Source of the DNA: Escherichia coli
GTDB lineage: Bacteria > Pseudomonadota > Gammaproteobacteria > Enterobacterales > Enterobacteriaceae
Length of the DNA stretch: 64,000 nucleotides
Strand: one strand, 5' to 3'
Assembly: GCF_003334405.1 (NCBI RefSeq)
Contig: NZ_QOWM01000012.1
Of the stretch, positions 35,512 to 57,831 are shown in pieces. The position numbers and the translations under genes are program-made. Position 1 is the first letter of the stretch; the number at the start of each line of letters is the position of its first letter. The notes under the pieces are model-generated. The model made no database searches. It saw only the letters and a program-made list of their open reading frames with translations, and was not told the origin of the DNA.

Positions 35512-35527
35512 CACAGGAGATACCCCA

Positions 35528-35788: not shown

Positions 35789-35790
35789 AT

Positions 35791-37703: not shown

Positions 37704-37769
37704 GGGTAACCTCCACAACAGCGGGAGCGCATGGCCCCCGGCGAAGATTGATTTAAGAATTTTCAGGTC

Positions 37770-38487: not shown

Positions 38488-38688
38488 GAGGATATCCTTC
38501 AGCATAAATGTAATAGACAAAATGCAGTGTACCGGATACCGCCAAAAGCGAGAAGTACGGGCAGGTGCTATGACCAGGACTTTTTGACCTGAAGTGCGGA
38601 TAAAAACAGCAACAATGTGAGCTTTGTTGTAATTATATTGTAAACATATTGCTAAATGTTTTTACATCCACTACAACCATATCATCAC

Positions 38689-38705
38689 AAGTGGTCAGAC
38701 CTCCT
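38689..38705 (+). promoter_or_regulatory. FadR operator-like site in the fadE leader
   Basis: AAGTGGTCAGACCTCCT resembles the FadR consensus AACTGGTCNGACCTGTT, just upstream of the fadE start. Confidence 0.45.
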
Positions 38706-38726
38706 ACAAGTAAGGGGCTTTTCGTT

Positions 38727-41171
38727 ATGATGATTTTGAGTATTCTCGCTACGGTTGTCCTGCTCGGCGCGTTGTTCTATCACCGCGTGAGCTTATTTAT
38801 CAGCAGTCTGATTTTGCTCGCCTGGACAGCCGCCCTCGGCGTTGCTGGTCTGTGGTCGGCGTGGGTACTGGTGCCTCTGGCCATTATCCTCGTGCCATTT
38901 AACTTTGCGCCTATGCGTAAGTCGATGATTTCCGCGCCGGTATTTCGCGGTTTCCGTAAGGTGATGCCGCCGATGTCGCGCACTGAGAAAGAAGCGATTG
39001 ATGCGGGCACCACCTGGTGGGAGGGCGACTTGTTCCAGGGCAAGCCGGACTGGAAAAAGCTGCATAACTATCCGCAGCCGCGTCTGACCGCCGAAGAGCA
39101 AGCGTTTCTCGACGGCCCGGTAGAAGAAGCCTGCCGGATGGCGAATGATTTCCAGATCACCCATGAGCTGGCGGATCTGCCGCCGGAGTTGTGGGCGTAC
39201 CTTAAAGAGCATCGTTTCTTCGCGATGATCATCAAAAAAGAGTACGGCGGGCTGGAGTTCTCGGCTTATGCCCAGTCTCGCGTGCTGCAAAAACTCTCCG
39301 GCGTGAGCGGGATCCTGGCGATTACCGTCGGCGTGCCAAACTCATTAGGCCCGGGCGAACTGTTGCAACATTACGGCACTGACGAGCAGAAAGATCACTA
39401 TCTGCCGCGTCTGGCGCGTGGTCAGGAGATCCCCTGCTTTGCACTGACCAGCCCGGAAGCGGGTTCCGATGCGGGCGCGATTCCGGACACCGGGATTGTC
39501 TGCATGGGCGAATGGCAGGGCCAGCAGGTGCTGGGGATGCGTCTGACCTGGAACAAACGCTACATTACGCTGGCACCGATTGCGACCGTGCTTGGGCTGG
39601 CGTTTAAACTCTCCGACCCGGAAAAATTACTCGGCGGTGCAGAAGATTTAGGCATTACCTGTGCGCTGATCCCAACCACCACGCCGGGCGTGGAAATTGG
39701 TCGTCGCCACTTCCCGCTGAACGTACCGTTCCAGAACGGACCGACGCGCGGTAAAGATGTCTTCGTGCCGATCGATTACATCATCGGCGGGCCGAAAATG
39801 GCCGGGCAAGGCTGGCGGATGCTGGTGGAGTGCCTCTCGGTAGGCCGCGGCATCACCCTGCCTTCCAACTCAACCGGCGGCGTGAAATCGGTAGCGCTGG
39901 CAACCGGCGCGTATGCTCACATTCGCCGTCAGTTCAAAATCTCTATTGGTAAGATGGAAGGGATTGAAGAGCCGCTGGCGCGTATTGCCGGTAATGCCTA
40001 CGTGATGGATGCTGCGGCATCGCTGATTACCTACGGCATTATGCTCGGCGAAAAACCTGCCGTGCTGTCGGCTATCGTTAAGTATCACTGTACCCACCGC
40101 GGGCAGCAGTCGATTATTGATGCGATGGATATTACCGGCGGTAAAGGCATTATGCTCGGGCAAAGCAACTTCCTGGCGCGTGCTTACCAGGGCGCACCGA
40201 TTGCCATCACCGTTGAAGGGGCTAACATTCTGACCCGCAGCATGATGATCTTCGGACAAGGAGCGATTCGTTGCCATCCGTACGTGCTGGAAGAGATGGA
40301 AGCGGCGAAGAACAATGACGTCAACGCGTTCGATAAACTGTTGTTCAAACATATCGGTCACGTCGGTAGCAACAAAGTTCGCAGCTTCTGGCTGGGCCTG
40401 ACGCGCGGTTTAACCAGCAGCACGCCAACCGGCGATGCCACTAAACGCTACTATCAGCACCTGAACCGCCTGAGCGCCAACCTCGCCCTGCTTTCTGATG
40501 TCTCGATGGCAGTGCTGGGCGGCAGCCTGAAACGTCGCGAGCGCATCTCGGCCCGTCTGGGGGATATTTTAAGCCAGCTCTACCTCGCCTCTGCCGTGCT
40601 GAAGCGTTATGACGACGAAGGCCGTAATGAAGCCGACCTGCCGCTGGTGCACTGGGGCGTACAAGATGCGCTGTATCAGGCTGAACAGGCGATGGATGAT
40701 TTACTGCAAAACTTCCCGAACCGCGTGGTTGCCGGGCTGCTGAATGTGGTGATCTTCCCGACCGGACGTCATTATCTGGCACCTTCTGACAAGCTGGATC
40801 ATAAAGTGGCGAAGATTTTACAAGTGCCGAACGCCACCCGTTCCCGCATTGGTCGCGGTCAGTACCTGACGCCGAGCGAGCATAATCCGGTTGGCTTGCT
40901 GGAAGAGGCGCTGGTGGATGTGATTGCCGCCGACCCAATTCATCAGCGGATCTGTAAAGAGCTGGGTAAAAACCTGCCGTTTACCCGTCTGGATGAACTG
41001 GCGCACAACGCGCTGGTGAAGGGGCTGATTGATAAAGATGAAGCCGCTATTCTGGTGAAAGCTGAAGAAAGCCGTCTGCGCAGTATTAACGTTGATGACT
41101 TTGATCCGGAAGAGCTGGCGACGAAGCCGGTAAAGTTGCCGGAGAAAGTGCGGAAAGTTGAAGCCGCGTAA
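38727..41171 (+). CDS. fadE: Acyl-CoA dehydrogenase
   Basis: 814-aa product from [14 protein letters not shown].. with acyl-CoA dehydrogenase domains. Confidence 0.9.
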
Positions 41172-41177
41172 ATGAAT

Positions 41178-41204
41178 AACGGAGCCGAAAGGCTCCGTTT
41201 CTTT
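41178..41204 (+). terminator. Rho-independent terminator after fadE
   Basis: ggagccgaaaggctcc hairpin followed by gtttcttt. Confidence 0.6.
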
Positions 41205-41213
41205 ATCCGCTAA

Positions 41214-41687
41214 TTATTTAAAATTAAAGCCATCCGGATGGTTTTCCAGGCTGCCGGTCAACGCCGCGAACAACACCGTTTTACCATCAATCGAAAGCGC
41301 ATCGTTCACATTCAGCCAGGTGAGTTTCTCTTGCGACGTTTTCTCATCAATAGTCGAGAACAGCCCCGTCATCTGATTAGATTTCTCGGACCACATCACA
41401 GCGATACGTTGCGAGCCACAGTCATGCGGTTTGCACGCGCTCATCACCTGATACGTCTCATCTCCCAACGTTACGGTTTGTGCGGGAGTATAAGTACCGC
41501 CTTTCATCACCCAGGCAGGCAGCTTATGCCCTTGTACCATCTGATTAAATGCAGCTTTGGTGGTTTCGCCCTTTGCAAGGCTGCTAATGGTTAAATCATC
41601 CTGCGCCATTGCACTGGTGGCGATGACCAGAGCGGCGACTGTCGTTATTGCCTTAAACATCATTCCTCCCGAGCTTATCCTGCCCAT
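41214..41687 (-). CDS. ivy: Inhibitor of vertebrate (C-type) lysozyme
   Basis: 157-aa signal-peptide ORF with the conserved CKPHDC motif. Confidence 0.85.
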   Translation of the reverse strand: MGRISSGGMMFKAITTVAALVIATSAMAQDDLTISSLAKGETTKAAFNQMVQGHKLPAWVMKGGTYTPAQTVTLGDETYQVMSACKPHDCGSQRIAVMWSEKSNQMTGLFSTIDEKTSQEKLTWLNVNDALSIDGKTVLFAALTGSLENHPDGFNFK

Positions 41688-41840
41688 GTTATTAACCTCC
41701 TAAAGCCTGGCGATAACACGATAATTTGCAAATCAGATATTTCCAATATCAGCATTTGTTATCAATTTATTCTGCGCTAAGGCAACTGCCTGATAAGGTG
41801 TTAAAGTTATAAAACCCTTCGCATAAAGGAGTTGTACACC

Positions 41841-42611
41841 GTGCCTGGTTTGAAGATTACGCTTTTGCAGCAACCACTGGTGTGGATGGATGGTCCTGCC
41901 AACCTGCGTCATTTTGATCGTCAACTGGAAGGTATTACCGGGCGCGATGTGATCGTTCTACCGGAGATGTTTACCAGCGGCTTTGCCATGGAAGCGGCAG
42001 CTTCGTCGCTAGCACAAGATGACGTAGTGAACTGGATGACAGCTAAGGCGCAGCAGTGCAATGCGCTGATTGCAGGCAGTGTTGCATTACAAACGGAGTC
42101 TGGTTCGGTTAACCGCTTTTTGCTGGTTGAGCCGGGCGGCACGGTACATTTTTATGATAAGCGTCATCTGTTCCGCATGGCAGATGAGCATCTACATTAT
42201 AAAGCGGGCAATGCGCGAGTGATTGTGGAATGGCGCGGCTGGCGTATTTTGCCGCTGGTGTGCTACGACTTACGTTTTCCTGTGTGGTCGCGCAATCTCA
42301 ACGATTATGACCTCGCCCTGTACGTCGCCAACTGGCCTGCTCCGCGCTCTCTGCACTGGCAGGCATTGCTGACGGCCCGCGCGATTGAGAATCAGGCGTA
42401 TGTGGCGGGATGCAATCGCGTCGGCAGCGATGGCAACGGCTGCCATTATCGCGGTGACAGCCGGGTGATTAATCCGCAAGGAGAGATTATCGCTACTGCC
42501 GACGCGCATCAGGCAACGCGCATTGATGCGGAGCTGTCGATGGCAGCATTGCGGGAATATAGAGAAAAGTTTCCGGCATGGCAGGATGCGGATGAGTTTA
42601 GGTTGTGGTGA
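41841..42611 (+). CDS. yafV: Nitrilase-superfamily omega-amidase
   Basis: CN-hydrolase fold (catalytic Cys in ..LPLVCYDLRFP..); GTG start at 41841. Confidence 0.85.
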   Translation: MPGLKITLLQQPLVWMDGPANLRHFDRQLEGITGRDVIVLPEMFTSGFAMEAAASSLAQDDVVNWMTAKAQQCNALIAGSVALQTESGSVNRFLLVEPGGTVHFYDKRHLFRMADEHLHYKAGNARVIVEWRGWRILPLVCYDLRFPVWSRNLNDYDLALYVANWPAPRSLHWQALLTARAIENQAYVAGCNRVGSDGNGCHYRGDSRVINPQGEIIATADAHQATRIDAELSMAALREYREKFPAWQDADEFRLW

Positions 42612-42651
42612 GTGGGGGTTGTGTTTAAGGACGGGGAGAGTCGGGGTATTA

Positions 42652-43788
42652 CTACGAAAGCCCGCTCCCCGCAAGGACTGACGCCAGGTAGTTTCTGTCC
42701 ATGGCTGCTTTTCGCATCTTACGTCTTAACCCTGCCTTGAATACCTTCTCATTCGTCAAAATATTAATAGCAATGTGCCGTATCCCTGAAAATAATTCTG
42801 CTGCGTTTCCTCTTCTTATTTTGTAGTCGTCTTCATTCATTACCACGTCCAGACGCCTGTGCAGCTTATTCTCCACGTGCCAGTGGTTTCGGATTGCTGT
42901 GGCGAACTTCTCTGCGGTTAAATCAGCAGAACTGATATAATATCTGACCGTCATTTCTGGCTCTTTCTTTTGTTCTGCTATTATTGACCGAAAGGAGACT
43001 GCCACGCATAATTTCTTCAGCCCTTTCCATTCAAACGTGAAATCAATAAGTTCATCAGGGACATCGCAAACAATATGAAGACGGATTTCTTCTCTGCCGT
43101 GACTCTTTTCACTCATTGCGTAACTGTCATGCGCTGGATTATTTAATTCTTTCAGCGGAAATTTTTCCTCAAAGGCTTTATTTAGCCGCCCCTGGTTTCC
43201 TTTTACCGCGAATAAATAATCACCTCCCTGTTTTTGTATCTTCTCTGCAATATCTTTCTGGCAACCCATCGCATCAGTTGTGATGATTTTTCCTTTAATA
43301 TCCAGCATGTTAAGAAGTTCTGGGATAGCTGTAATCTCATTAGATTTCTCATCCGTCCTGATCTGTCCGATGACCAGACTGTGCATTGTTGAGAACGCAC
43401 TAATGACATGAATCGCTCCCTTGCGGCGACTCTTGTCATAAGAATGCCGGAGTGTTTTTCCATCAATTGCGATGACGTCTTTATCATCTGAAGTATGGCA
43501 ATCTCGCATCCAGTTAATAAAGCACTCGTGAAATTTTGAAGGACTGATACAGGATACAACTCTGGCGATGGTATCGTGAACAGGAATACCATTTTCAAAA
43601 TCACCATATTGTTTTAAAAAATCGAGATGTGTTTCCCCAAAATCCTCTATATCTTCCCAGCCTTCTGCACCAGAAATAACGGCACAAATAGTCAACAGTA
43701 GAATATCCGATAATTTATGTTCCACTTTCCAGGCTTGTCTGTAATCGGGGATAATAGAAATATGTTCCATCAATTTTTTAAGTTCCAT
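42652..43788 (-). CDS. ISAs1-family (H-repeat-associated) transposase
   Basis: 378-aa ORF, apparently intact, with an H-repeat/ISAs1-type transposase sequence; the element ends were not mapped. Confidence 0.8.
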
Positions 43789-44218
43789 TTTGTTCTCCTT
43801 AATTATGTAAGGAGTATTTGATCATGTATAAGCAATAAAAAACAGCTTCAGGTAATGAGGAATATCTCAATTTTTAAACATAAAATGCGAATTATTTAGT
43901 ACAAAAAATCAGCGTTACGTGATCTTTCCCTGCCCCTGCGCTCACTACCATGGCTCTTTACCACAGCAGCCGGGGTTGTTTGGGACCGACTTCCGACAGC
44001 AGATCCCGGTGGGCCTGCCACCATCTCTTCACAAGCTTATGCTTATTACATGCAAAACGTCCCGTTTTGCATCTTTGTGCCTACGGCACACCGGTGATCT
44101 TTCCCTGATGAGGGATATATTAACTATTGAACATTAGCGCGAATTATTTAGTGCAAAAAATCAGCATCACGTGATGCTTTTCCTGCTATTAATAACCTCC
44201 TCTATTTAACTATATTTT

Positions 44219-44611
44219 TCATTGATGCAATTCGTAGATTTGAAGAAGTTCAACTGCCACATTTTTATTTTTACTATCGCAATTTTTATACCATACCCAT
44301 GCTTCCGTATTTTTTACTTTTTTTAAATCATCCATAATAAAATCCCCACCAAAAACAGTAAAATACAATGTTTCCTCATTAAAAATAAAACTCACTGCCC
44401 CCCCCTCTTTTATTTTAATTTCCGCTTCATTTGTGTTCAAATCAACTTTTTTAATTACTCCATGTAAGTTGGGTTTTGATAGTTTTTCTACGCCACCATC
44501 AGGAGCGGGTAATATACATCGTTTAAGAACTTTAGCATTTGCACATCCAATAACCCAAATTAGAATGCACACTCCCATGTTAATCGCATTAACGTGTCTT
44601 AAAACGTTCAT
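44219..44611 (-). CDS. Candidate immunity lipoprotein for the adjacent Rhs C-terminal toxin
   Basis: Small AT-rich ORF immediately downstream of and overlapping the Rhs tip; internal Met gives the signal-peptide/lipobox-like start [15 protein letters not shown]. Confidence 0.4.
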
Positions 44612-46017
44612 ATCTAATTCTCTCTCCAGGATGCGAATACATCCAACTTGTCACTTTCTTACACAACTCATCTACATCTTCATTCTGTGCACGGGTACAT
44701 CCCATAGTTGGTTTCCAGCCTTGTCGAGGAGCATAAGGATCGCGCAACGATGATCCCCCACCATGTAGCCATCTTGCTCTAGTATCTGTAGTATAGATCT
44801 TCGTTGTGCCATATGCTGCCGATATTCCTGATTCATTTGTCTCACAACCAACGACTTCACCTGTATATGGATCACCAGCACCACGTTGAGAACGACGATC
44901 AATTCTATTGCTACTATCAAAAGTCATTGAATCACCTGTTTCAGGATCATAATAAATAGTCACTCCTCCAGTCATATCAGTAAGAACAAGAGGAGTTTCA
45001 GCACCTGCCCGGTCTGGAGCGGGAGGCCCATATACACTTATAACTCGTTCTAACCCCAGTGGATCAGTGTAACGTATTGGTACCAGTGGATACGTGTATA
45101 GATTTATTCCCCCCTTCAACCCTATCGGATCCTGGGTGATATACCGCCCCTGCAACGGATCGTAGTACCGGTGACGGTTGTAATACAGTCCCGACTCCTC
45201 ATCATACTGCTGCCCCGGCAGACGGAGTGACTGTTGAAGGTGCTGCGCACTGGTTTCGCCCAGCAGGTTTCCCCATTCGTCATACTCCCCGCACCACGCC
45301 GTTTCCCCTTCCGGGCTGATAAGCGCCTGCGGCAGTCCCCGGTGGTCACAGTGGTAAAGATGAAGTTTCCTCTCCGGGATGTATTCCGCCTCCATCTGCG
45401 CGGCCATCTGTTCCGCCGTCAGCCCGCACTGCGCAAGCCATGCCTCACTCTCCGCACTCACCGCTCCCGCGCGCAGTTCCCGCTCCAGCCTCCCCAGCAT
45501 CACCGCCAGCTCCGCCGGGAGCGTCACACCCGTGTCCTCCTGCAACACCTCCGCCAGGCTCCGGTGCCGCGCCTTCGCCTGTTCGCCATTCTCTGTTTCG
45601 ATTCTGATGAGCGGCGTGAAGCTCCCCGGCTGGTATACCGTCTGGATACGCGTGGTGCCGGTCTGTACCGTCGTCAGCCTGTCACCGTCCCACCCGTACC
45701 ATGTCACCTCCGGTTTACGCGACAGCGACATCCACCCCGTCAGGTCACGCTCCCGCCGCCATACCCGTTTTCCCGTCCGGCGGCCCAGCGGGTCATAGAG
45801 GTACCGGCTCTCCACCTGTGGTTCGCCGTGCTGTATCCGCGTGTAGAACACCAGGCGGTGCTGGCTGTCGTAGTGGTAGTGGTGGGTCCGCTCGTCGTGC
45901 ATCCGTATCACCCCTTCCGGGATGCGGTCCGTCTTCTCCGCCAGCCTGCCGTATTCATCGTGGCGGTAGACATAGTGCGCATCTTCCGCGATGCGGTTAC
46001 CCGGCGTTTTCCCCGAT
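44589..46017 (-). pseudogene. Orphan Rhs C-terminal fragment: distal core, DPxGL boundary and variable C-terminal toxin domain
   Basis: ..[31 protein letters not shown] followed by a ~150-aa divergent tip; no N-terminal Rhs core; the frame stays open upstream of the track start to about 46017. Confidence 0.7.
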
Positions 46018-48511
46018 GCTGGTTGAGTGGCTTAAAGAGGGCTGGCTGCTGGCGTCGGCTGAGATGCAGCACAGCGAACTGCGCGGCGGCGTGTTGCTGC
46101 TGGCCCTGCTGCATTCGCCGCTGCGTTATATACCGCCTGCTGCCGCCCGGCTGTTGACCGGCATTAACCGTGACCGTCTGCAACAGGACTTTGTGCAGTG
46201 GACACAGGAGTCGGCGGAATCAGTCGTGCCGGATGCAGACGGTAAAGGCGCAGGCACAATGACGGACGCCTCTGACACCCTGCTTGCCCGCTATGCCAAA
46301 AACATGACCGCAGACGCCCGTAACGGCAGGCTTGACCCGGTACTGTGCCGCGACCACGAAATCGACCTGATGATCGACATTCTCTGCCGCCGCCGTAAAA
46401 ACAACCCGGTGGTGGTGGGCGAAGCGGGCGTGGGCAAAAGCGCACTGATTGAAGGGCTGGCGCTGCGCATCGTGGCAGGCCAGGTGCCGGACAAGCTGAA
46501 AAACACCGATATCATGACCCTTGACTTGGGCGCATTGCAGGCCGGGGCGTCGGTGAAGGGTGAATTCGAAAAACGTTTCAAAGGGCTGATGGCGGAGGTC
46601 ATTTCCTCCCCGGTGCCGGTCATTCTGTTTATCGACGAAGCACATACCCTGATTGGCGCGGGCAACCAGCAGGGCGGGCTGGATATCTCCAACCTGCTCA
46701 AACCGGCGCTGGCGCGCGGCGAGCTGAAAACCATCGCCGCCACCACCTGGAGCGAGTACAAAAAATACTTCGAAAAAGATGCCGCCCTGTCGCGCCGCTT
46801 CCAGTTGGTGAAGGTCAGCGAACCCAACGCTGCCGAAGCCACCATTATTCTGCGCGGTCTGTCGGCGGTCTATGAACAGTCTCACGGCGTGCTGATTGAT
46901 GATGACGCCTTGCAGGCCGCTGCGACATTAAGCGAGCGTTATCTCTCCGGGCGTCAGTTACCGGACAAAGCGATTGATGTGCTGGATACCGCCTGCGCCC
47001 GTGTGGCCATCAACCTGTCGTCGCCGCCGAAGCAAATCTCGGCGCTGACCACTCTGAGCCACCAGCAGGAGGCGGAAATTCGCCAGCTTGAGCGCGAGCT
47101 TCGCATCGGACTGCGTACCGACACATCACGGATGACAGAGGTGCTGGTGCAGTATGATGAAACGCTGACGGCGCTGGATGAACTGGAAGCGGCCTGGCAC
47201 CAGCAGCAGACGCTGGTCCGGGAGATTATCGCGCTGCGCCAGCAGTTACTGGGCGTGGCAGAGGACGATGCGGCGCCGTTGCCGGACGCAGATACCGTGG
47301 AGGATACGCAGCCAGAGTCAGAGTCAGAACAGGATAATACCGGTGCCGTACCGGCTGATGAGGCCGACAGAGAACAACCGGAAGAGACCGCTGAAACAGT
47401 TTCCCCGGTACAGCGGCTGGCCCAGCTCACTGCCGAACTGGACGCCCTGCATAACGACCGGTTGCTGGTCTCCCCGCACGTCGATAAAAAACAGATTGCG
47501 GCGGTGATTGCCGAATGGACCGGCGTGCCGCTCAACCGCCTGTCGCAGAATGAAATGTCGGTCATCACCGACCTGACGAAATGGCTGGGTGACACCATCA
47601 AAGGCCAGGACCTGGCGATTGCCAGCCTGCATAAGCATCTACTGACCGCACGCGCCGACCTGCGTCGTCCGGGACGCCCGCTCGGTGCGTTCCTGCTGGC
47701 TGGCCCCAGCGGTGTGGGTAAAACCGAAACCGTCCTGCAACTGGCAGAGCTGCTCTACGGCGGTCGCCAGTACCTGACCACCATCAATATGTCCGAATTC
47801 CAGGAGAAACACACCGTCTCGCGGCTGATTGGTTCGCCTCCGGGCTACGTTGGCTACGGTGAAGGCGGCGTACTGACCGAAGCGATTCGTCAGAAACCCT
47901 ACTCGGTAGTACTGCTCGATGAAGTGGAAAAAGCGCACCCGGATGTGCTCAACCTGTTCTACCAGGCGTTCGATAAGGGCGAAATGGCAGACGGTGAAGG
48001 CCGCCTGATTGACTGCAAAAATATCGTCTTCTTCCTGACGTCCAACCTCGGCTACCAGGTAATAGTCGAGCATGCCGATGACCCGGAAACCATGCAGGAA
48101 GTACTGTATCCGGTGCTGGCCGACTTCTTCAAACCTGCCCTGCTGGCGCGTATGGAAGTGGTGCCGTATCTGCCGCTGTCGAAAGAGACGCTCGCCACCA
48201 TTATCGCCGGAAAACTGGCCCGTCTGGATAACGTGCTGCGCAGTCGCTTTGGTGCAGAAGTGGTCATTGAACCGGAAGTGACGGACGAAATCATGAGCCG
48301 CGTCACCCGCGCGGAAAACGGCGCGAGGATGCTGGAATCGGTCATCGATGGCGACATGCTACCGCCGCTCTCGCTGCTGCTGTTGCAGAAAATGGCGGCT
48401 AACACGGCGATTGCCCGGATTCGGTTGTCGGCAGTGGACGGCGCATTTACGGCAGACGTGGAAGATGCTCAGAACGACGAGTCCGTCACAAAGGATGAAA
48501 CGGTTTTATGA
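46017..48511 (+). pseudogene. clpV: 5'-truncated ClpV/TssH (type VI secretion AAA+ ATPase)
   Basis: Two AAA+ modules (GEAGVGKS.. and GPSGVGKT..) preceded by only part of the N domain; the first ~100 codons of the track ORF are antisense to the Rhs fragment. Confidence 0.7.
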
Positions 48512-49170
48512 GCAGGTTGCGCGTTTTCCGGCAGACAGGATGGTTTATCGCGGGCCTGATGACGGGCTTACCCGCCACTGCCGCGCCCGCAGAAGCATCG
48601 TCAATGGCCGGTGTGGCGGTCGCCGTCGCCACCACGACCCCGCCGGATGCGACAGCCACGTTACAGGCCATACAGTCCTGTCGGCGGGAGTCCGCGGCGC
48701 TGGAGCGGCTTGACTGCTATGACCGCCTGCTGGCACCGCTGTCCCCGTCAGGGTTTGACGGGGCGCTGGTCAAAGCCGGTTTTGTGGGCGAGGCCTGGAC
48801 CCGCGCCACAGAGCAGGAAAAACGCCGCGAGGGCAACACCACAGAACTGCTGGTGACGCAGGTGCCGGGGGAGCGCCCGACGGTGGTGATAACCACCCCG
48901 GCTATCGGTCATGTTCCGCCACGCCCGGTGCTGATGTTCAGTTGCGTGGACAATATCACCCGGATGCAGGTGGCGCTGATGCACCCTCTGGATGTCCATG
49001 ATATCGCCGTCACTCTGAATGCCGACAACCGGGCATTGCGCAGCCACTGGTTTGTGCGCGAGAACGGCACCCTGCTGGAGTCCAGCCGGGGGTTATCCGG
49101 GATTGATGAAATTAAGCAACTGTTCGGCGCAAAAACGCTGACGGTGGATACCAGGGACGACGTATCGGGC
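48508..49170 (+). CDS. VasI-like T6SS-associated periplasmic protein; 3' end appears fused to the tssM fragment
   Basis: Signal peptide and a ..AALERLDCYDRLL.. motif; start overlaps the clpV stop (ATGA); the reading frame switches into tssM-homologous sequence near 49170. Confidence 0.4.
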
Positions 49171-49175
49171 CTTAT

Positions 49176-51074
49176 GTGGAACAGACCTATCTGCAACTGC
49201 TGGAGCAACGTTACCTGCCCTCGCTGTTTAACGGGCTGGTCAAAGCGATGAACGCCGCGCCGCCGGAGAGTGAAGAAAAACTCGCGGTGCTGCGCGTAAT
49301 GCGAATGCTGGAGGACAAAAGCGGACGTAACAATGAGGTGGTGAAGCAGTATATGGCAAAACGCTGGAGCGAAAAATTCCACGGCCAGCGCGATATCCAG
49401 GCACAACTGATGTCCCATCTTGACTACGCGCTGGCTCATACTGACTGGCATGCAGAGCGTCAGGCGGGCGACGGTGACGCCATCAGCCGCTGGACGCCAT
49501 ATGACAAGCCCGTGGTATCAGCACAGAAAGAACTGAGCAAACTGCCTGTCTACCAGCGGGTTTACCAGAGCCTGAAAACGCGGGCGCTGGGCGTTCTTCC
49601 TGCCGACCTCAATCTGCGTGACCAGGTAGGGCCAACCTTTGACCAGGTGTTTACATCTGCCGATGACAACAAACTGGTTGTTCCACAGTTTCTTACCCGT
49701 TACGGCCTGCAAAGCTATTTTGTAAAACAGCGCGATGAACTGGTTGAACTGACGGCGATGGATTCCTGGGTACTTAACCTTACCCGCAGCGTGAAATACA
49801 GTGACGCCGACCGCGCGGAAATCCAGCGCCAGTTGACCGAGCAGTATATCAGCGACTACACCGCCACCTGGCGGGCCGGGATGGACAATCTGAATATCCG
49901 CAATTTTGAGTCCATCGGACAACTGACCGGGGCGCTGGAGCAGGTTATCAGCGGCGACCAGCCTTTGCAGCGGGCGCTGACCGTCCTGCGTGACAACACA
50001 CAGCCAGGCGTCTTTTCTGAAAAACTCTCTGCCAAAGAACGGGAGGAAGCCCTGGCAGAGCCGGATTACCAGTTACTCACCCGCCTCGGGCATGAATTCG
50101 CCCCGGAAAACAGTACCCTGGCAGTACAGAAAGACAAAGAAAGCACGATGCAGGCCGTGTATCAGCAACTCACCGAGTTGCACCGCTACCTGCTGGCAAT
50201 CCAGAACGCGCCTGTACCAGGGAAATCGGCGCTGAAAGCCGTGCAGTTACGGCTTGATCAGAACAGCAGCGATCCGATATTCGCCACCCGCCAGATGGCA
50301 AAAACGCTGCCTGCTCCGCTCAACCGCTGGGTTGGCAGACTGACTGACCAGGCCTGGCATGTGGTGATGGTGGAGGCTGTTCATTATATGGAAGTGGACT
50401 GGCGCGACAGCGTGGTGAAACCGTTTAACGAGCAACTGGCAAATAACTATCCGTTTAATCCGCGTTCTGCACAGGATGCCTCACTGGATGCCTTCGAACG
50501 CTTCTTTAAACCGGATGGCATACTGGATACCTTCTACCAGCAGAACCTGAAGCTGTTTATCGATAATGACCTGAGTCTGGAGGATGGCGATAACAACGTC
50601 ATTATTCGCGAAGATATTATTGCGCAACTGGAAACTGCGCAGAAAATCCGTGACATCTTCTTCAGCAAACAGAACGGTCTGGGAACATCCTTTGCCGTGG
50701 AAACGGTATCGCTTTCAGGCAATAAACGCCGCAGTGTACTGAACCTTGACGGTCAGTTAGTCGATTACAGCCAGGGCCGTAACTATACCGCCCATCTGGT
50801 CTGGCCTAACAACATGCGCGAAGGCAACGAAAGTAAGCTGACGCTCATCGGCACCAGCGGCAACGCGCCGCGCAGTATCAGCTTCAGCGGGCCGTGGGCG
50901 CAGTTCCGCCTGTTCGGGGCCGGACAACTGACCGGAGTACAGGATGGCAACTTTACCGTGCGCTTTAGCGTGGACGGTGGCGCGATGACCTACCGTGTGC
51001 ATACCGACACGGAAGATAACCCGTTCAGCGGTGGGTTGTTCAGCCAGTTTGGTCTGTCAGACACACTGTACTGA
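49176..51074 (+). pseudogene. tssM: TssM (IcmF-like) C-terminal fragment; N-terminal TM/NTPase portion missing
   Basis: About 630 aa resembling the middle and C-terminal TssM regions; too short for a full TssM (>1100 aa). Confidence 0.6.
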
Positions 51075-51084
51075 GGAGGCAGGG

Positions 51085-52437
51085 ATGAATAGTAACGTAC
51101 TGACACAAACTATCGTTACCGGCAGTGACCCGCGCGGGCTGCCGGAATTCAGCGCCATCCGCGAGGAAATAAACAAAGCCAGCCACCCGTCACAGCCTGA
51201 GCTGAACTGGAAACTGGTGGAGTCGCTGGCGCTGGCGATTTTTAAAGCCAACGGTGTGGATTTACACACCGCCACCTACTATACGCTTGCCCGGACACGG
51301 ACACAGGGACTGGCGGGATTCTGCGAAGGTGCGGAACTGCTGGCGGCAATGGTAAGCCACGACTGGGATAAGTTCTGGCCGCAGGGCGGCCCGGCGCGTA
51401 CTGAAATGCTGGACTGGTTTAACTCCCGAACCGGCAATATTCTGCGTCAGCAAATCTCCTTTGCGGAATCCGACCTACCACTGATCTACCGCACAGAGCG
51501 GGCATTGCAGCTTATCTGCGATAAGCTCCAGCAGGTGGAACTGAAGCGCGTTCCGCGCGTGGAGAATCTGCTCTATTTTATGCAGAACACGCGTAAACGG
51601 CTTGAACCCCAGCTGAAGAGTAACACTGAGAACGCCGCACAGACCACGGTCAGAACGCTGATTTATGCCCCGGAAACACAGGCATCTTCCACACCAGAAG
51701 CGGTAGTGCCTCCCCTGCCCGGCCTGCCTGAGATGAAAGTGGAAGTGCGCAGTCTGACAGAGAATCCCCCACAGGCCAGTGTGATAAAGCAAGGCAGTAC
51801 GGTAAGAGGGTTTATCGCAGGGATCGCCTGTTCAGTGGCTGTCGCCTCAGCATTGTGGTGGTGGCAGGTCTATCCGGTGCAGCAGCAACTGTTACAGGTT
51901 AACGACACCGCTCAGGGCGCAGCAACGGTGTGGATGGCCTCACCTGAACTCGAAAACTATGAGCGCAGGCTGCAACAACTTCTTGATACCTCCCCGGTAC
52001 AGCCGCTGGAAACCGGGATGCAGATGATGCGTGTTGCCGACAGTCGCTGGCCGGAAAGCCTGCAACAGCAACAGGCCTCGACACAATGGAATGAGGCACT
52101 CAAAACCCGCGCACAGAGTAGCCCGCAGTTGCGTGGCTGGTTGCAGACCCGCCAGGACTTACATGCTTTTGCAGATCTAGTGATGCAGCGCGAGAAAGAG
52201 GGACTAACCCTTTCCTATATCAAAAATGTCATCTGGCAGGCGGAGCGGGGACTGGGGCAGGAAACACCCGTTGAGTCTCTGTTGACGCAGTACCATGATG
52301 CCCGTGCGCAGAAGCAGAATACAGATGCGCTGGAAAAACAAATTAATGAGCGACTCGAAGGTGTGTTAAGCCGCTGGCTGCTGCTGAAGAATAACGTCAT
52401 GCCAGAGGCGGCAACCGGTACCACGGCCGAAAAATAA
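51085..52437 (+). CDS. ImpA-N-domain T6SS protein with a central TM segment (VasL-like, TssA-related)
   Basis: N-terminal ImpA-like region (..GSDPRGLPEF..LNWKLVESLALAIF..), TM segment GFIAGIACSVAVASALWWW; ATG 51085 with GAGGAGG RBS. Confidence 0.6.
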   Translation: MNSNVLTQTIVTGSDPRGLPEFSAIREEINKASHPSQPELNWKLVESLALAIFKANGVDLHTATYYTLARTRTQGLAGFCEGAELLAAMVSHDWDKFWPQGGPARTEMLDWFNSRTGNILRQQISFAESDLPLIYRTERALQLICDKLQQVELKRVPRVENLLYFMQNTRKRLEPQLKSNTENAAQTTVRTLIYAPETQASSTPEAVVPPLPGLPEMKVEVRSLTENPPQASVIKQGSTVRGFIAGIACSVAVASALWWWQVYPVQQQLLQVNDTAQGAATVWMASPELENYERRLQQLLDTSPVQPLETGMQMMRVADSRWPESLQQQQASTQWNEALKTRAQSSPQLRGWLQTRQDLHAFADLVMQREKEGLTLSYIKNVIWQAERGLGQETPVESLLTQYHDARAQKQNTDALEKQINERLEGVLSRWLLLKNNVMPEAATGTTAEK

Positions 52438-52460
52438 TTATTTAATTAAAGGAGATTATC

Positions 52461-52943
52461 ATGGCAAATATAAGTTATTTATCTTTGAGTGGAGAGACAC
52501 AAGGGCTAATTTCAGCAGGTTGCTCAACGCTTGATTCTGTCGGAAACAAAGCGCAGCCAGAACATAAAGATCAGATCATGGTTTATGCGTTAATGCATTC
52601 CATCTCAAGAAGTCAAAATGTCAATCATCATGAATTAATTATCACCAAACCGGTTGATAAATCCTCACCATTGCTGGCAAAAGCACTTAGTGACAATGAA
52701 AAAATGGCAATATGTGAATTTATACTCTACCGAACCAGTAAAGCGGGTATTTACCAGCCTTATTATAAAATAAATCTGTCAAAAGCCCGAATATCAAGTA
52801 TTGATTTTGTCACACCGCATGCTGTCCTGGAAAAAGAACTGGAACCACAGGAGAGAATTGCCTTTATTTATGAAGATATTTCCTGGGAGCATACGTTAGC
52901 CGGTACGAATGCAATGAGTAAATGGCAGGATCGTGTACAGTAA
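52461..52943 (+). CDS. hcp: Hcp (TssD) type VI secretion tube protein
   Basis: 160-aa ORF with the Hcp-like core ..ITKPVDKSSPLLAKALSDNEKMAICEFILYR.. Confidence 0.8.
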   Translation: MANISYLSLSGETQGLISAGCSTLDSVGNKAQPEHKDQIMVYALMHSISRSQNVNHHELIITKPVDKSSPLLAKALSDNEKMAICEFILYRTSKAGIYQPYYKINLSKARISSIDFVTPHAVLEKELEPQERIAFIYEDISWEHTLAGTNAMSKWQDRVQ

Positions 52944-52986
52944 CTTACTGTAATAACATAATAAATTACTATTGCGGAGAGATAAA

Positions 52987-53901
52987 ATGGCTGGTTTAAG
53001 GAATAACAACAACACACAGAATGCACAGTGGGCTGATTATGTGGGTGACATTCTTCGGGGGGCTCAGCCGATAAACCAGCTAGTACCTCAGCACCCTTAT
53101 CTTAACGACGTCCCACTCATTGATGAGTTAAGGCATCAGAACACTCATCATGTTATTCCCTTGACACTTGATGTTGCAAAAAAAATACTCAGCCCAATAA
53201 CATCATTTGATTACATTCATTTTATCACTACACATCCTTCAGGTATAAAAGATACACTCGCCTGGTTAGTTAACGCGGGTAAATTAATGACTGAGTTTGA
53301 TGACAATGGGAAAATTATATTTAACCTTAATGCCTTAAAGTATACAAAAGCAAGTTACTTTGAAATACTTGGAGAGAAATATATAAAAATCACAACATCC
53401 AGCCCCTGGCTTTTAGAAAAGCTCGGTAAATATATTTTCTCTTCACGAGCGCCTCAAGTTCTGGAACTCGCTATTGGCTGGCGAGGAGCTTTATCTGAAT
53501 CAATAAAAGGAGTTAAGTTCTGTATCTGGTTTTCAGTAGCCTGGAGAACCATAGAATTTATTATGAGTTCAGAGCGAGATCTGGTTAATTTTCTTGGCGA
53601 TTTTTCAATGGATGTGGCCAAAGCAGTTATAGCCGGTGGTGTTGCAACCGCTATTGGAAGTCTGGCTTCTTTTGCCTGTGTTAGCTTTGGCTTTCCAGTA
53701 ATTCTTGTCGGAGGAGCAATTTTACTGACAGGGATAGTGTGTACAGTTGTTTTAAATGAAATCGATGCTCAATGCCATTTATCAGAAAAATTAAAATATG
53801 CAATTAGAGATGGACTAAAACGGCAACAGGAACTTGATAAATGGAAAAGGGAAAACATGACTCCATTTATGTATGTTCTTAACACTCCACCCGTGATATG
53901 A
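52987..53901 (+). CDS. Hcp-linked putative membrane-active toxin with a C-terminal glycine-zipper hydrophobic domain
   Basis: AT-rich ORF directly after hcp; C terminus GGVATAIGSLASFACVSFGFPVILVGGAILLTGIVCTVVL; no family recognised by eye. Confidence 0.4.
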   Translation: MAGLRNNNNTQNAQWADYVGDILRGAQPINQLVPQHPYLNDVPLIDELRHQNTHHVIPLTLDVAKKILSPITSFDYIHFITTHPSGIKDTLAWLVNAGKLMTEFDDNGKIIFNLNALKYTKASYFEILGEKYIKITTSSPWLLEKLGKYIFSSRAPQVLELAIGWRGALSESIKGVKFCIWFSVAWRTIEFIMSSERDLVNFLGDFSMDVAKAVIAGGVATAIGSLASFACVSFGFPVILVGGAILLTGIVCTVVLNEIDAQCHLSEKLKYAIRDGLKRQQELDKWKRENMTPFMYVLNTPPVI

Positions 53902-53910
53902 GGATTAACC

Positions 53911-54390
53911 ATGCGTTTACATGTTAAATTAAAAGAGTTTCTTTCGATGTTTTTTATGGCCATATTATTTTTCCCTGCATTCAATGCTTCTTTGTTTTTT
54001 ACCGGAGTTAAACCTCTATATTCAATAATAAAATGCTCCACGGAAATATTTTATGATTGGAGAATGTTGATTCTGTGCTTCGGTTTCATGTCGTTTTCCT
54101 TTTTAAATATTCATGTAATTTTACTTACGATAATAAAATCATTCTTAATCAAAAAAACGAAGGTAGTCAATTTCGCCACAGACATAACAATACAGCTAAC
54201 TCTTATATTTTTACTAATAGCTATCGTAATAGCACCTTTAATAGCTCCTTTTGTCACAGGATATGTCAATACTAATTATCACCCCTGCGGTAATAATACG
54301 GGAATTTTCCCAGGAGCAATCTATATTAAAAATGGCATGAAATGTAATAATGGATATATTTCTCGCAAGGAAGATTCAGCAGTTAAATAA
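53911..54390 (+). CDS. Small multi-TM inner-membrane protein (YkfM-like by size and position); candidate immunity protein
   Basis: 159-aa AT-rich ORF with three or four hydrophobic segments, 10 bp downstream of the putative toxin gene. Confidence 0.45.
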   Translation: MRLHVKLKEFLSMFFMAILFFPAFNASLFFTGVKPLYSIIKCSTEIFYDWRMLILCFGFMSFSFLNIHVILLTIIKSFLIKKTKVVNFATDITIQLTLIFLLIAIVIAPLIAPFVTGYVNTNYHPCGNNTGIFPGAIYIKNGMKCNNGYISRKEDSAVK

Positions 54391-54526
54391 TTAAATATTC
54401 TAAAACAAACAGTTTTTAACTCCGGATTCCATGTCCTTTCTTGCACTGTCTTTGTCAAGAAAAATTTCTTATGCAAAGAATTTTGTATTATTGCCGCCAG
54501 AAATTCCTGGCGGCAGATATAATTTA

Positions 54527-55312
54527 TTATTGATAGCGGTTAACCAAATCTTTTACCATCGCTTTATAGGTCTTTTGCTTAAGTTGCATGATTTGCTGCT
54601 CTGTCATATCAGTCGTACTGGCTTCATTCTTGTCGGGCAATGGTGGAAGCACTTTATATTCATAATTCACCGGCGACCAGGTAGCCCACTCACCTGTTGC
54701 CACATCCACCAGCGTGAAACGTACCAGGTAGCGCAGGGAGATAGCGTCAGTGAGTTTGTCATTTTTATAGTCGGACCATACTGTTGATTTCAGCGCAGAG
54801 TCATATTTTCCTGTCTGCAACATATCCTGGTAAACAATAATCGCTTTCTGATGTCCTTTTGCAGCCACAAAACGCAGTGCCTGCATCCAGTTCATATTCT
54901 CAGCACTGGCAACATCCTCGTTCTCATTTTTATCTTTGTTTTTGTTACAAGTCAGAGGCTTTTGCCTGTCCGGGATACCAGAGAATGTGGAAACAGTATA
55001 ATATTTTCGCATCTCCTCCTGCATAATGGTTTCCGGTGCGCGGTTGCCGGATTGAACAAGTATTACAGGAGAATTAAGGGGAACGCGGAACTCATCTCCA
55101 TCAAGCGCAGCTTGAATATCCTCTTCGGATACGGCCAGAGTGGTTTCATTACCGAATAAATCTTTGTCTGTCAGTTGCTGGGGAGTGTTTTTATTAATAT
55201 TACTTTGTGTGACTTGAGCTTTTTTCTTCTTTTCATCAATAGAAGATTCAGAGGCACATCCTGCAAGCAGCGAGAATAACACACATATGCAACAAAGCTT
55301 TTTTGAATTCAT
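54527..55312 (-). CDS. yafT: Lipoprotein YafT-like
   Basis: 261-aa ORF with lipoprotein signal (LLAGCAS), next to aspV. Confidence 0.75.
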
Positions 55313-55579
55313 AATTGGACACTCCCTCGCCTGTCATAATGATTAGAATATTTAGCATTGATAACGGACTCTAATTATATACCTCACTTAAATAATAACA
55401 AACAAAATCAATTTGAAATATACATTCATTTAATCAATATAAATTTATTCTCTAGAAATATATTTAAGCTGAATGGTTCGATATCATTATTGAATTTTAA
55501 TGAATGAGACAACAAGCGAGAATCACGCACCTACGCCAGAGTAAAATCATTGAACAGAGAAATGGTGGAATTCAAATAC

Positions 55580-55610
55580 AAAAAAACCGCAAAATTAAAA
55601 ATCTTGCGGC
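55580..55610 (-). terminator. Rho-independent terminator downstream of aspV
   Basis: Minus strand ccgcaagatttttaattttgcgg followed by a T run. Confidence 0.5.
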
Positions 55611-55639
55611 TCTCTGAACTCATTTTCATGAGTGAATAG

Positions 55640-55716
55640 TGGCGGAACGGACGGGACTCGAACCCGCGACCCCCTGCGTGACAGGCAGGTATTCTAACCG
55701 ACTGAACTACCGCTCC
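55640..55716 (-). tRNA. aspV: tRNA-Asp (anticodon GUC)
   Basis: Reverse complement is GGAGCGGTAGTTCAGTCGGTTAGAATACCTGCCTGTCACGCAGGGGGTCGCGGGTTCGAGTCCCGTCCGTTCCGCCA. Confidence 0.95.
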
Positions 55717-55848
55717 GCGTTGTGTTCCGTTGGGAACGAGGCGAATATTACGGATTGCCTCGACCTTCGTCAACGGTTTTTCTCATCTTTTGAATCGTTT
55801 GCTGCAAAAATCGCCCAAGTCGCTATTTTTAGCGCCTTTCACAGGTAT

Positions 55849-56580
55849 TTATGCTCGCCAGAGGCAACTTCCGCCTTTCTTCTGCACCAGATCGAGACGG
55901 GCTTCATGAGCTGCAATCTCTTCATCTGTCGCAAAAACAACGCGTAACTTACTTGCCTGACGTACAATGCGCTGAATTGTTGCTTCACCTTGTTGCTGTT
56001 GTGTCTCTCCTTCCATCGCAAAAGCCATCGACGTTTGACCACCGGTCATCGCCAGATAAACTTCCGCAAGGATCTGGGCATCGAGTAATGCCCCGTGCAG
56101 CGTTCGTTTACTGTTATCTATTTCGTAGCGAGCACATAACGCATCGAGGCTGTTGCGCTTACCGGGAAACATTTTCCTCGCCACCGCAAGGCTATCGGTG
56201 ACCTTACAGAAAGTATTGGTCTTCGGAATATCGCGCTTAAGCAACGAAAACTCGTAGTCCATAAAGCCGATATCGAACGCTGCGTTATGGATCACCAACT
56301 CCGCGCCGCGAATATAGTCCATGAACTCATCGGCTACTTCGGCAAACGTGGGCTTATCGAGCAAAAATTCATCGGCAATACCATGTACGCCAAAGGCTTC
56401 CGGATCCACCAGCCGATCGGGTTTGAGATAAACATGGAAGTTATTGCCCGTCAGGCGACGGTTCACCACTTCAACGGCACCAATCTCAATGATCTTGTGG
56501 CCTTCATAGTGCGCACCAATCTGGTTCATACCGGTGGTTTCGGTATCGAGAACGATCTGGCGTGTAATTGCAGTGCTCAT
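55849..56580 (-). CDS. dnaQ: DNA polymerase III epsilon subunit (3'-5' proofreading exonuclease)
   Basis: 243-aa product [19 protein letters not shown].. with DEDDh exonuclease motifs. Confidence 0.9.
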
Positions 56581-56644
56581 AGCGGTCATTTATGTCAGAC
56601 TTGTCGTTTTACAGTTCGATTCAATTACAGGAAGTCTACCAGAG

Positions 56645-57112
56645 ATGCTTAAACAGGTAGAAATTTTCACCGATGGTTCGTGTCTGGGCAATCCAGGACC
56701 TGGGGGTTACGGCGCTATTTTACGCTATCGCGGACGCGAGAAAACCTTTAGCGCTGGCTACACCCGCACCACCAACAACCGTATGGAGTTGATGGCCGCT
56801 ATTGTCGCGCTGGAGGCGTTAAAAGAACATTGCGAAGTCATTTTGAGTACCGACAGCCAGTATGTCCGCCAGGGTATCACCCAGTGGATCCATAACTGGA
56901 AAAAACGTGGCTGGAAAACCGCAGACAAAAAACCAGTAAAAAATGTCGATCTCTGGCAACGTCTTGATGCTGCATTGGGGCAGCATCAAATCAAATGGGA
57001 ATGGGTTAAAGGCCATGCCGGACACCCGGAAAACGAACGCTGTGATGAACTGGCTCGTGCCGCGGCGATGAATCCCACACTGGAAGATACAGGCTACCAA
57101 GTTGAAGTTTAA
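56645..57112 (+). CDS. rnhA: Ribonuclease HI
   Basis: 155-aa product [26 protein letters not shown]..; divergent from dnaQ. Confidence 0.9.
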
Positions 57113-57831
57113 GCCTGTGGTTTACGACATTGCCGGGTGGCTCCAACCGCCTGGCGAATTCGTGGCTTGTTTTTACTCTGTTTCATCGGATTTAGCGTTA
57201 AAGGAATAGTCCGTTTCCGGGCAACAATAAGTTGTAAGCAACCAAGCGCAGGAATATGCGCATTCAATAGTTTTCCTCCGTGTTTGTTCCACGGGAGAAC
57301 GTGGAAACGGCTGGCGTGTAGCACTTCAAAATTCAACAAAGAGAGCCAGTCCAGCTGCCGCATCAGAGTAAACATCCGGCTGTTATAGGGCGAGGTTTTG
57401 CGCAATACCGGCACAAGTTTGCGTAATCCCATAAAACTGATGGGATTGAAGCCACTAATGACCAGCCAGCCATCATCAATCAATACCCGATCGGCTTCAC
57501 GCAATAAACGATGCGGATCGGTGCACCACGGCAATGTATGTGCCAGTAGACAAACATCAACGGATTTATCGGCAAAAGGAAGATGAAGTGGGTCCGCCTG
57601 TACCTGGACGGGCATTCCTTGCGCAGAAACATTCACTTGATGAGAAACCGCGCACGCTTCGCAATTGATTTCTGCGCTTAAATTGCCAATCTTAAGCAGA
57701 TGAAAACCATACATTTTAGTGAACCACGGGTTGAGCTGGCGCTCCAGCGCCTTGCGATAAAGCTTTCCCCAGGGCAAATCGCCCCAGCAATCAGGAGCCA
57801 CGACAGTTTGAGGGACTCTTGCCGGTTTCAT
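57109..57831 (-). CDS. yafS: SAM-dependent methyltransferase-like protein
   Basis: 240-aa product from [16 protein letters not shown].. Confidence 0.8.

Follow-up and report, generated by a model that had tools for sequence, protein, structure and literature searches.

How does a type VI secretion system (T6SS) island come to lose its apparatus, and why do some of its genes stay intact after the loss? The question is raised by a 64,000-nucleotide stretch of Escherichia coli DNA (contig NZ_QOWM01000012.1, assembly GCF_003334405.1; hereafter the window) in which truncated T6SS genes lie next to complete ones. The region at 44.2–54.4 kb of the window is a decayed, apparatus-less form of the T6SS island that is linked to the tRNA gene aspV in E. 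coli. With a probability of roughly 0.85, it is a non-functional remnant that was made in at least two steps, by joins at microhomologies, and that has drifted neutrally since. On this reading, the disabling of a T6SS island in one E. coli sublineage can be traced exactly, in two steps, from this locus. An earlier note, made from the letters of the window alone, had described the T6SS genes as fragmentary. This is confirmed by tblastn and blastn, at coordinates within about 20 bp of those in the note.

Two deletions in an aspV-linked island

The window at 36–60 kb was placed on the chromosome by its map of open reading frames (ORFs), by megablast against 5,426 complete E. coli RefSeq genomes and by the annotation of the matching records. 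The same 5,426 genomes are the basis of all genome counts given below. The gene order at the site is fadE, ivy, yafV and ISAs1, then the island, then yafT, aspV and dnaQ. The island itself runs from rhs and an immunity gene through the T6SS genes to hcp2, a gene for a 304-amino-acid protein and ykfM. The flanks are 99.5–100% identical to many E. coli genomes. The numbering of the aspV-linked island as T6SS-1 or T6SS-2 is inconsistent between papers.

The intact reference island is that of strain MRSN346638 (NZ_CP018115.1, 242–273 kb). On one strand, this island carries the immunity gene, rhs, vgrG and hcp1. On the other strand are tssB, a small hypothetical gene, tssC, tssE, tssF, tssG, tagH, tssJ, tssK, tssL, tssH, vasI, tssA, tssM, a VasL-domain gene, hcp2, the gene for the 304-amino-acid protein and ykfM. 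The hcp1-vgrG-rhs operon of intact islands is divergent from tssB to tssM, and rhs is natively on the opposite strand. The rhs fragment in the window has this native orientation and is not inverted, as the earlier note had supposed.

The window locus descends from such an island. Between yafV and ISAs1 on the left and yafT and aspV on the right, blastn finds collinear, near-identical sequence in three blocks: window 35500–46005 and reference 3692–14197 (99.48% identity), window 45998–49152 and reference 30445–33599 (99.97%), and window 49149–57417 and reference 36733–45001 (99.96%). The site is the same in both strains, with yafV-ISAs1 on the left and yafT-aspV-dnaQ on the right, and the retained pieces keep their gene order and strand. 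Nucleotide identity is 99.96–99.97% over the T6SS genes and 99.5% over the left flank and the rhs region. Unlike the intact island, the window lacks 19,392 bp in two blocks, and both operon promoter regions are missing. Of the thirteen core genes, eleven are lost or too truncated to be of use. The alignment to an intact aspV island, a check that the earlier note had proposed, defines both deletion junctions and finds neither clpV (tssH) nor tssM at full length. The features at and between the junctions are as follows.

45701–45997, plus strand: spurious 5′ extension of the tssH frame, 99 codons antisense to rhs (ORF list)
45998–46005, no strand: junction of deletion 1, TACCCGGC, overlap of both parental sides
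45998–48511, plus strand: tssH (clpV) pseudogene without codons 1–84, which are part of the N-domain (tblastn match to TssH 85–921, 100% identity)
48508–49251, plus strand: truncated vasI, codons 1–215 of 247 (to 49152), followed by 32 out-of-frame tssM codons and a stop (blastn, tblastn)
49149–49152, no strand: junction of deletion 2, 4-bp microhomology TACC
49149–51074, plus strand: truncated tssM, codons 504–1144 (641 codons), periplasmic part only (tblastn; TIGR03348 positions 526–1167 of 1168)

Deletion 1 amounts to 16,255 bp relative to MRSN346638 in the base-level blastn alignment. It joins rhs, of which the last 472 codons including the stop are kept on the minus strand, to codon 85 of tssH. 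Lost with it are 939 N-terminal codons of rhs, codons 1–84 of tssH and, between them, vgrG, hcp1, the divergent intergenic promoter region, tssB, the small hypothetical gene, tssC, tssE, tssF, tssG, tagH, tssJ, tssK and tssL. For the two rhs alleles that were examined, the microhomology is a perfect TA followed by matches at five of six bases, TA(C)CCGGC, or 2–8 bp. The earlier note had placed a 5′ truncation of clpV by rhs near 46017; the truncation holds, and its position is 45998–46005. A 401-bp probe over the junction is 100% identical in 30 complete genomes. The carriers of this junction come from pigs, humans, birds, milk, soil and seawater.

The tssH pseudogene keeps both of its AAA+ Walker A motifs. 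The same sequence is flagged as 'missing N-terminus' by the Prokaryotic Genome Annotation Pipeline (PGAP) in strain JNQH497 and in others. It is contained in a chimeric ORF of 936 codons (45701–48511, from an ATG at 45701) that combines rhs antisense sequence with truncated tssH. The first 99 codons of this ORF are of low complexity and rich in P, G, A, S and R. They have no family match, and the match to TIGR03345 begins only at residue 100.

Deletion 2 amounts to 3,137 bp by blastn against MRSN346638 and joins vasI after codon 215 to codon 504 of tssM. The last 32 codons of vasI, the entire tssA gene and tssM codons 1–503 are lost. Beyond the join, translation from vasI would continue in the +1 frame of tssM and meet a stop after 32 codons, at 49251. 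By coincidence, the chimeric vasI ORF again has 247 codons. The NCBIfam model TIGR03360 matches its vasI part over profile positions 2–164 of 187, and the tblastn match to VasI covers residues 1–218. The earlier note had vasI running into tssM near 49170. The join exists, at 49149–49152, but it does not make a fusion protein. An in-frame VasI-TssM fusion was rejected because the reading frame of vasI meets tssM at codon position 2 and ends after those 32 codons.

On the tssM side of the join, the tblastn match covers TssM residues 495–1144, with true homology from residue 504. The earliest possible start of the truncated gene is a GTG at 49176, which gives an ORF of 632 amino acids, and the earlier claim that only the C-terminal part of TssM is left agrees with this. 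In full-length TssM, the hydrophobic segments (residues 1–19, 36–54 and 420–438) and a Walker A motif at 113 are all within the deleted part. The TssM remnant is thus without an anchor or an export signal, because all of the hydrophobic segments were lost.

As a single-piece probe, junction 2 is found in 0 of the 5,426 complete genomes, which is what a collapsed or misjoined assembly of the 3.1-kb vasI-tssM gap would give. Such an artefact is hardly credible. Three NCBI draft assemblies contain the exact chimeric VasI protein, as do Logan assemblies from independent runs, one contig of which was seen in 8 samples. Both junctions are present, exactly, in all five loci that were fetched with this protein. 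The exact junction sequences of 84–88 bp recur in the drafts and in the Logan assemblies, which bear private differences from one another. The draft GCA_003334405.1 is 100% identical to window 42508–55251. Misassembly of deletion 2 is ruled out by this look-up of the exact protein in independent assemblies. Because it is exact in independent assemblies and always occurs with junction 1, deletion 2 is real and marks a sublineage within the deletion 1 clade. The junctions at 45998–46005 and 49149–49152 are usable as clonal markers.

The whole window was compared with all 21 proteins of the MRSN346638 island by tblastn. TssB, TssC, TssE, TssF, TssG, TagH, TssJ, TssK, TssL, TssA and VgrG have no match in the window, and the Hcp1 query gives only a weak cross-match to hcp2 (28.7% identity). 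The absence of tssB, tssC, tssK, tssL and vgrG had been noted before; that list was incomplete, and tssA, tssE, tssF, tssG, tssJ, tagH and hcp1 are also gone. In addition to the truncated genes, there are matches to TagA/VasL (residues 1–450, 100%), Hcp2 (100%), the 304-amino-acid protein (100%), YkfM (one substitution) and YafT (100%), and the first three of these proteins are identical in the window and the reference. The family assignments agree with NCBIfam. A functional T6SS cluster has 13 intact core genes, tssA to tssM. Here, hcp2 alone is intact, and tssH (codons 1–84 gone) and tssM (codons 1–503 gone) are truncated core genes. No other T6SS gene is found by tblastn elsewhere in the 64 kb. 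In such strains, tssH, tssM, tagA and hcp would be wrongly counted as present by a screen for gene presence.

Retained genes at the two edges of the island

The genes that remain to the right of the deletions, together with the island anchor, are as follows.

51085–52437, plus strand: tagA (VasL-like), 450 amino acids, ImpA_N and VasL domains with one hydrophobic segment; intact (100% identical to WP_001087741.1)
52461–52943, plus strand: hcp2 (tssD2), 160 amino acids; intact (TIGR03344 over its full length, 2.1e-60; 100% identical to WP_001284199.1)
52987–53901, plus strand: gene for a predicted membrane-disrupting T6SS effector of the Tme family, 304 amino acids; intact (100% identical to WP_000908066.1)
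53911–54390, plus strand: ykfM, 159 amino acids, three hydrophobic segments, putative Tmi/DUF1240-like immunity protein; intact (gene downstream of Tme in PMC7046647)
54527–55312, minus strand: yafT, lipoprotein gene, right flank of the island (100% identical to the reference; annotated)
55640–55716, minus strand: tRNA-Asp (aspV), island anchor (ARAGORN and annotation)

The earlier note had called the VasL-like gene, hcp and an effector/immunity-like pair intact, and they are, by tblastn. For tagA, a relative with both deletions has the identical gene, with recorded Pfam domains ImpA_N and VasL. NCBIfam gives a partial match to the TssA N-terminus, and a hydrophobic segment lies at residues 239–258, which places the protein in the TagA class of ImpA_N proteins. 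We know of no role for TagA without a sheath. Proteins of the TagA class are accessory proteins that stop and hold the extended sheath (PMC6745524).

The 304-amino-acid protein and YkfM are a predicted Tme/Tmi effector/immunity pair. The Tme family is defined by a DxxK motif followed by a transmembrane helix and consists of membrane-disrupting T6SS effectors, and the Tmi immunity family consists of DUF1240 and DUF1240-like proteins with multiple transmembrane helices (PMC7046647). Supplementary Data 5 of Fridman et al. 2020 lists WP_000908066.1 with a Tme domain at residues 122–277 (E = 2.6e-36), an upstream neighbour that is the Hcp protein WP_001284199.1 and a downstream neighbour that is YkfM (PMC7046647). 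Secretion, membrane-disrupting toxicity and neutralisation come from experiments on the Vibrio parahaemolyticus pairs Tme1/Tmi1 and Tme2/Tmi2 only (PMC7046647). In the window protein, whose sequence reads ...MDVAKAVIAGGVATAIGSLASF...NEID, DVAK, which is of the form DxxK, is followed by hydrophobic helices, with segments at 213–261. This is the conserved DxxK with a subsequent transmembrane helix flanked by Asp that characterises Tme sequences. Homologues of the protein are found in enterobacteria only.

The start of ykfM is 9 bp after tme. YkfM is 51% identical to the protein at the equivalent position in Salmonella, which has a recorded match to PF06836 (DUF1240), and has weak similarity (E = 6e-5) to a DUF1240 counterpart in Rahnella. 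The link to Tme/Tmi was drawn from the gene neighbourhoods of such distant homologues and from the literature. Pfam and NCBIfam were of little use for the 304-amino-acid protein, YkfM and the 130-amino-acid protein described below: no family is found for the first in either database, and YkfM has no direct hit in Pfam, DUF1240 included. The window pair shares with the Tme/Tmi family the DxxK and hydrophobic helix, the upstream hcp and the downstream protein with three transmembrane segments. It differs in that it sits in an island without an apparatus, is known here by its sequence, and includes a YkfM that does not match DUF1240 in Pfam. In Salmonella, the tme homologue follows tagA-hcp and is itself followed by two DUF1240 genes, one of which may be an extra immunity copy. 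In Rahnella, tme and a DUF1240 gene stand with a convergent orphan hcp outside any T6SS cluster.

To the left of deletion 1 are the truncated rhs gene, a small gene that overlaps it and an insertion sequence (IS).

42652–43788, minus strand: transposase gene of the ISAs1 (H-repeat) family, native left neighbour (annotated at the same position in the intact MRSN346638 island and in all decayed relatives)
44219–44611, minus strand: putative Rhs immunity gene, 130 amino acids; intact (collinear with the WP_001101839.1 gene in JNQH497 and MRSN346638)
44589–46005, minus strand: C-terminal rhs fragment, codons ~940–1410 of 1410, native orientation (blastn; NCBIfam RHS_core 970–1261 of 1261)

The rhs fragment is open over all 472 codons and is without a start codon context or promoter of its own. 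It contains the end of the Rhs core, DPLGL (of the type PxxxxDPxGL), followed by a C-terminal domain of about 153 amino acids. This domain has a weak match to YkuD/L,D-transpeptidase (E = 3.9e-4) and the motif HGGG...GCTR. It may be a Tlde1-like (YkuD-fold) toxin domain, a class marked by the His/Cys motif of L,D-transpeptidases. Because the N-terminal 939 residues, including the delivery part, are deleted, no functional Rhs effector is expected from the fragment. The 130-amino-acid gene is a putative immunity gene by its position; it overlaps the rhs stop codon in both JNQH497 and MRSN346638. Its product has a hydrophobic N-terminus with a lipoprotein-type signal that ends in VIGC, and its only Pfam match, to DUF4367, is weak. 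The gene differs from that of MRSN346638 by one substitution, at 44507. The rhs C-terminal domain and the 130-amino-acid lipoprotein look like a toxin that targets the cell wall and its periplasmic immunity protein.

Within the rhs fragment, a mosaic patch of about 120 bp (45221–45339) has about 30 differences from other deletion 1 genomes and keeps the frame. The patch matches other rhs core genes in many genomes at 100%. This suggests rhs-rhs gene conversion after deletion 1, unrelated to the deletions. A second rhs mosaic patch is found in GCA_024592625.1, at a position that corresponds to window 45762–45828. In MS 124-1 and NCTC9038, an extra full-length rhs element and a second ISAs1 copy are left of the remnant. 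In both, the truncated rhs has another C-terminal domain and immunity allele, and junction 1 is identical. To judge by these alleles, the 3′ end of rhs in such deletion 1 carriers has been exchanged since the deletion. The ISAs1 transposase gene of the window has a cluster of single-nucleotide polymorphisms at 43021–43711 relative to otherwise near-identical genomes, probably through exchange between ISAs1 copies.

Order of events and competing explanations

Step 1 was an illegitimate deletion of 16.3 kb from the middle of rhs, which lost its 5′ two-thirds, to codon 85 of tssH. This alone abolishes the apparatus, and the deletion passed to a clade whose members come from pigs, humans, birds and the environment. 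Step 2 was a deletion of 3.1 kb in one sublineage, from vasI codon 215 to tssM codon 504 and out of frame. In the proposed history, both events are probably errors of replication slippage or microhomology-mediated end joining and not mediated by an IS or by Rhs. The leftover tss genes would drift neutrally after step 1. That tagA, hcp2, tme, ykfM, the C-terminal part of rhs and the putative immunity gene survive would be due mainly to the recency of the events and to the place of these genes at the edges of the island. The ykfM gene and the 130-amino-acid lipoprotein gene are the sole retained genes with an obvious use in a cell without the apparatus, and they could protect it against T6SS-armed kin that carry the same toxins.

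Other carriers of junction 1 have different second lesions. MS 124-1 has junction 1 and no further lesion in truncated tssH, vasI, tssA or tssM, and its tagA is unflagged as far as the locus was fetched. JNQH497, NCTC10973, ECCTRSRTH03, BR1220 and 23CRST047 have a deletion of about 0.44 kb at the 5′ end of tssA. The site of this deletion, which is common among junction 1 carriers, is spanned by deletion 2. In strain 23CRST047, truncated tssH also carries an IS3 insertion, and the Rhs immunity gene is split. One further deletion affects tssH-vasI in UMNF18, and another runs from vasI to tagA in NCTC9038. Junction 1 carriers thus have at least four different secondary lesions. Several different lesions after one shared inactivating deletion are the pattern expected of neutral erosion. 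In the isolate GCA_024592625.1, which has both deletions, there is a 1-bp deletion near the 5′ end of tagA (window 51136), and the gene is called at 406 rather than 450 amino acids. By its sequence, this lesion is a sign that decay is continuing within the sublineage.

Decay of this island is not limited to the deletion 1 clade. Deletions of independent origin, at other breakpoints, are found in ST540, EC6030, Eco_23-3571, Z1323PEC0013 and ETEC6333. K-12 MG1655 keeps only the last 118 codons of the Tme gene; on one side they adjoin a truncated ISAs1 transposase gene, and on the other come ykfM and yafT. The fragment beside ykfM is presumably yafU. The K-12 region yafU-ykfM-yafT is at the same site as the window locus and shares its right-hand genes, with ykfM and yafT of K-12 being the last genes of the island. 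It differs in that decay is at a later stage: K-12 no longer has rhs, any tss gene, tagA or hcp2, and two-thirds of tme is missing. Two poorly characterised K-12 orphan genes, yafU and ykfM, are thereby connected with a predicted Tme/Tmi toxin-immunity pair, as relics of a T6SS island.

A similar case was described by Cummins et al. 2023 in the lineage ST410-B/H24, where a 21.0-kb rhsG-tssM deletion leaves tssA2 and tssD2 (PMC10711316). The ST410-B junction is without a mobile element and was used as a clonal marker (PMC10711316). The window shares with ST410-B (PMC10711316) a large deletion from rhs into the tss genes, a junction without a mobile element, and the retention of tssA2 (tagA) and tssD2 (hcp2). 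By its published description, ST410-B is another lineage with other breakpoints and a single step from rhsG to tssM. In the window, the rhs deletion ends in tssH, and a second deletion, in a nested lineage, takes tssA and the 5′ part of tssM. The window locus is another instance of the documented decay of this island by rhs-tss deletion and does not change the current understanding.

The earlier note had named Rhs and H-repeat elements as the likely agents of rearrangement. They could have acted by deletion adjacent to ISAs1 or by homologous recombination between rhs copies. One end of deletion 1 is in rhs, an ISAs1 copy is 2.2 kb from that junction, and the mosaic patches of the rhs fragment are typical of rhs-rhs gene conversion. 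An IS-mediated deletion is plausible in K-12, where the remnant abuts the truncated ISAs1 transposase gene. For the window, a mobile-element origin is very improbable. The ISAs1 copy at 42652–43788 is complete, native and at the same site in the intact island. Neither junction touches the end of an IS; an IS-mediated deletion would have an IS terminus exactly at the junction. The parental sequences share only 2–8 bp at junction 1 (rhs-tssH, TA(C)CCGGC) and 4 bp at junction 2, with no rhs-rhs homology, and deletion 2 involves neither rhs nor ISAs1. A join by microhomology fits both junctions, a mechanism inferred from the junction sequences only. Against the proposed history, many independent deletions elsewhere have one end in rhs or vgrG and the other in tssH, vasI, tssM or tagA, in a sample of decayed islands that was chosen by similarity to the window and in which endpoint bias is not quantifiable. 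Such recurrent endpoints could reflect a local deletion hotspot or selection, not pure chance.

The survival of the edge genes can be read in other ways than as a result of recency and position. The earlier note had suggested selective retention. In this reading, selection maintains tagA, hcp2, the Tme effector gene and the immunity genes after the loss of the apparatus, either because another T6SS can use them as cargo or because they guard the cell against armed kin. This is doubtful as an account of the whole set. In its favour, every sampled decayed island outside K-12 whose fetched locus reaches ykfM retains hcp2, tme and ykfM, and K-12 still has ykfM. Retention rises toward the aspV edge: counted as genomes with at least 80% coverage of the query piece, tssBC is kept in 2184 of 5,426, tagA-hcp2-tme in 2311, hcp2 in 2551 and ykfM, the most widely kept piece of the island, in 2998. 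Such a gradient weighs against pure drift, in that selection for an immunity gene would also give it. Random nested deletions would yield the same gradient at an edge next to yafT, aspV and dnaQ, and the ykfM count is inflated by K-12 laboratory derivatives. The genes themselves are lost in several relatives. Independent deletions truncate tagA in NCTC9038 and ETEC6333, and the gene is frameshifted in GCA_024592625.1 and absent from K-12, which has also lost hcp2 and two-thirds of tme. Eco_23-3571 has a frameshift in ykfM; 23CRST047, NCTC10973 and MS 124-1 have a split Rhs immunity gene. The retained proteins are 0–1 residue from those of the intact island, which leaves no time for selection to show. 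A selection test on sequence divergence has no power, because there are only 3 substitutions in 8.3 kb relative to the intact island. The data do not demonstrate selective retention of tagA and hcp2; for the two immunity-type genes, such retention is possible.

The narrower form of this idea, a defensive immunity island, is offered tentatively. In it, ykfM and the 130-amino-acid gene would be kept by selection against the same or near-identical Tme and Rhs toxins, delivered by T6SS-armed E. coli in the same gut. Tmi/DUF1240-like proteins are an experimentally supported immunity family for Tme toxins (PMC7046647). MRSN346638 has the collinear putative Rhs immunity gene, one substitution away, and a near-identical rhs C-terminal region, which implies that armed kin with essentially the same toxins exist. 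If true, a defensive role would account for the persistence of ykfM, which survives longer than all other genes of the island, K-12 included. The use of Hcp2 and Tme by a second complete T6SS elsewhere in the genome is unlikely. The two genes and ykfM are intact in the window, and, as the orphan hcp of Rahnella illustrates, Hcp-effector-immunity modules of this family can lie away from a T6SS cluster. Against this, the 64-kb window has no further T6SS gene, and the native promoter region upstream of tssB is deleted, such that expression would need an internal promoter. A scan for promoter and terminator consensus sequences gave weak matches only and is not decisive. Hcp proteins are generally specific to their cognate system, which also counts against such use.

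Other features of the window

The first part of the window (1–33700) contains a complete Flag-2 (lateral flagellar) cluster, with fliD and lafA through flg, fli and flhA. Its identity to the JNQH497 copy, in which no pseudogene is flagged, is 99.94–99.96%. Of Flag-2, K-12 and some relatives (CP53, MRSN346638) retain no more than remnants of lafU and flhA. At window 7845–8054, the blastn blocks overlap and JNQH497 is 118 bp longer; a tandem repeat was considered as the cause of this difference near 7.9 kb, and Tandem Repeats Finder detects no array there in the window. A second tRNA-Asp gene (GTC) is at 63643–63719. In the reference, its neighbour is the 5S rRNA gene of an rrn operon whose start is past the window end.

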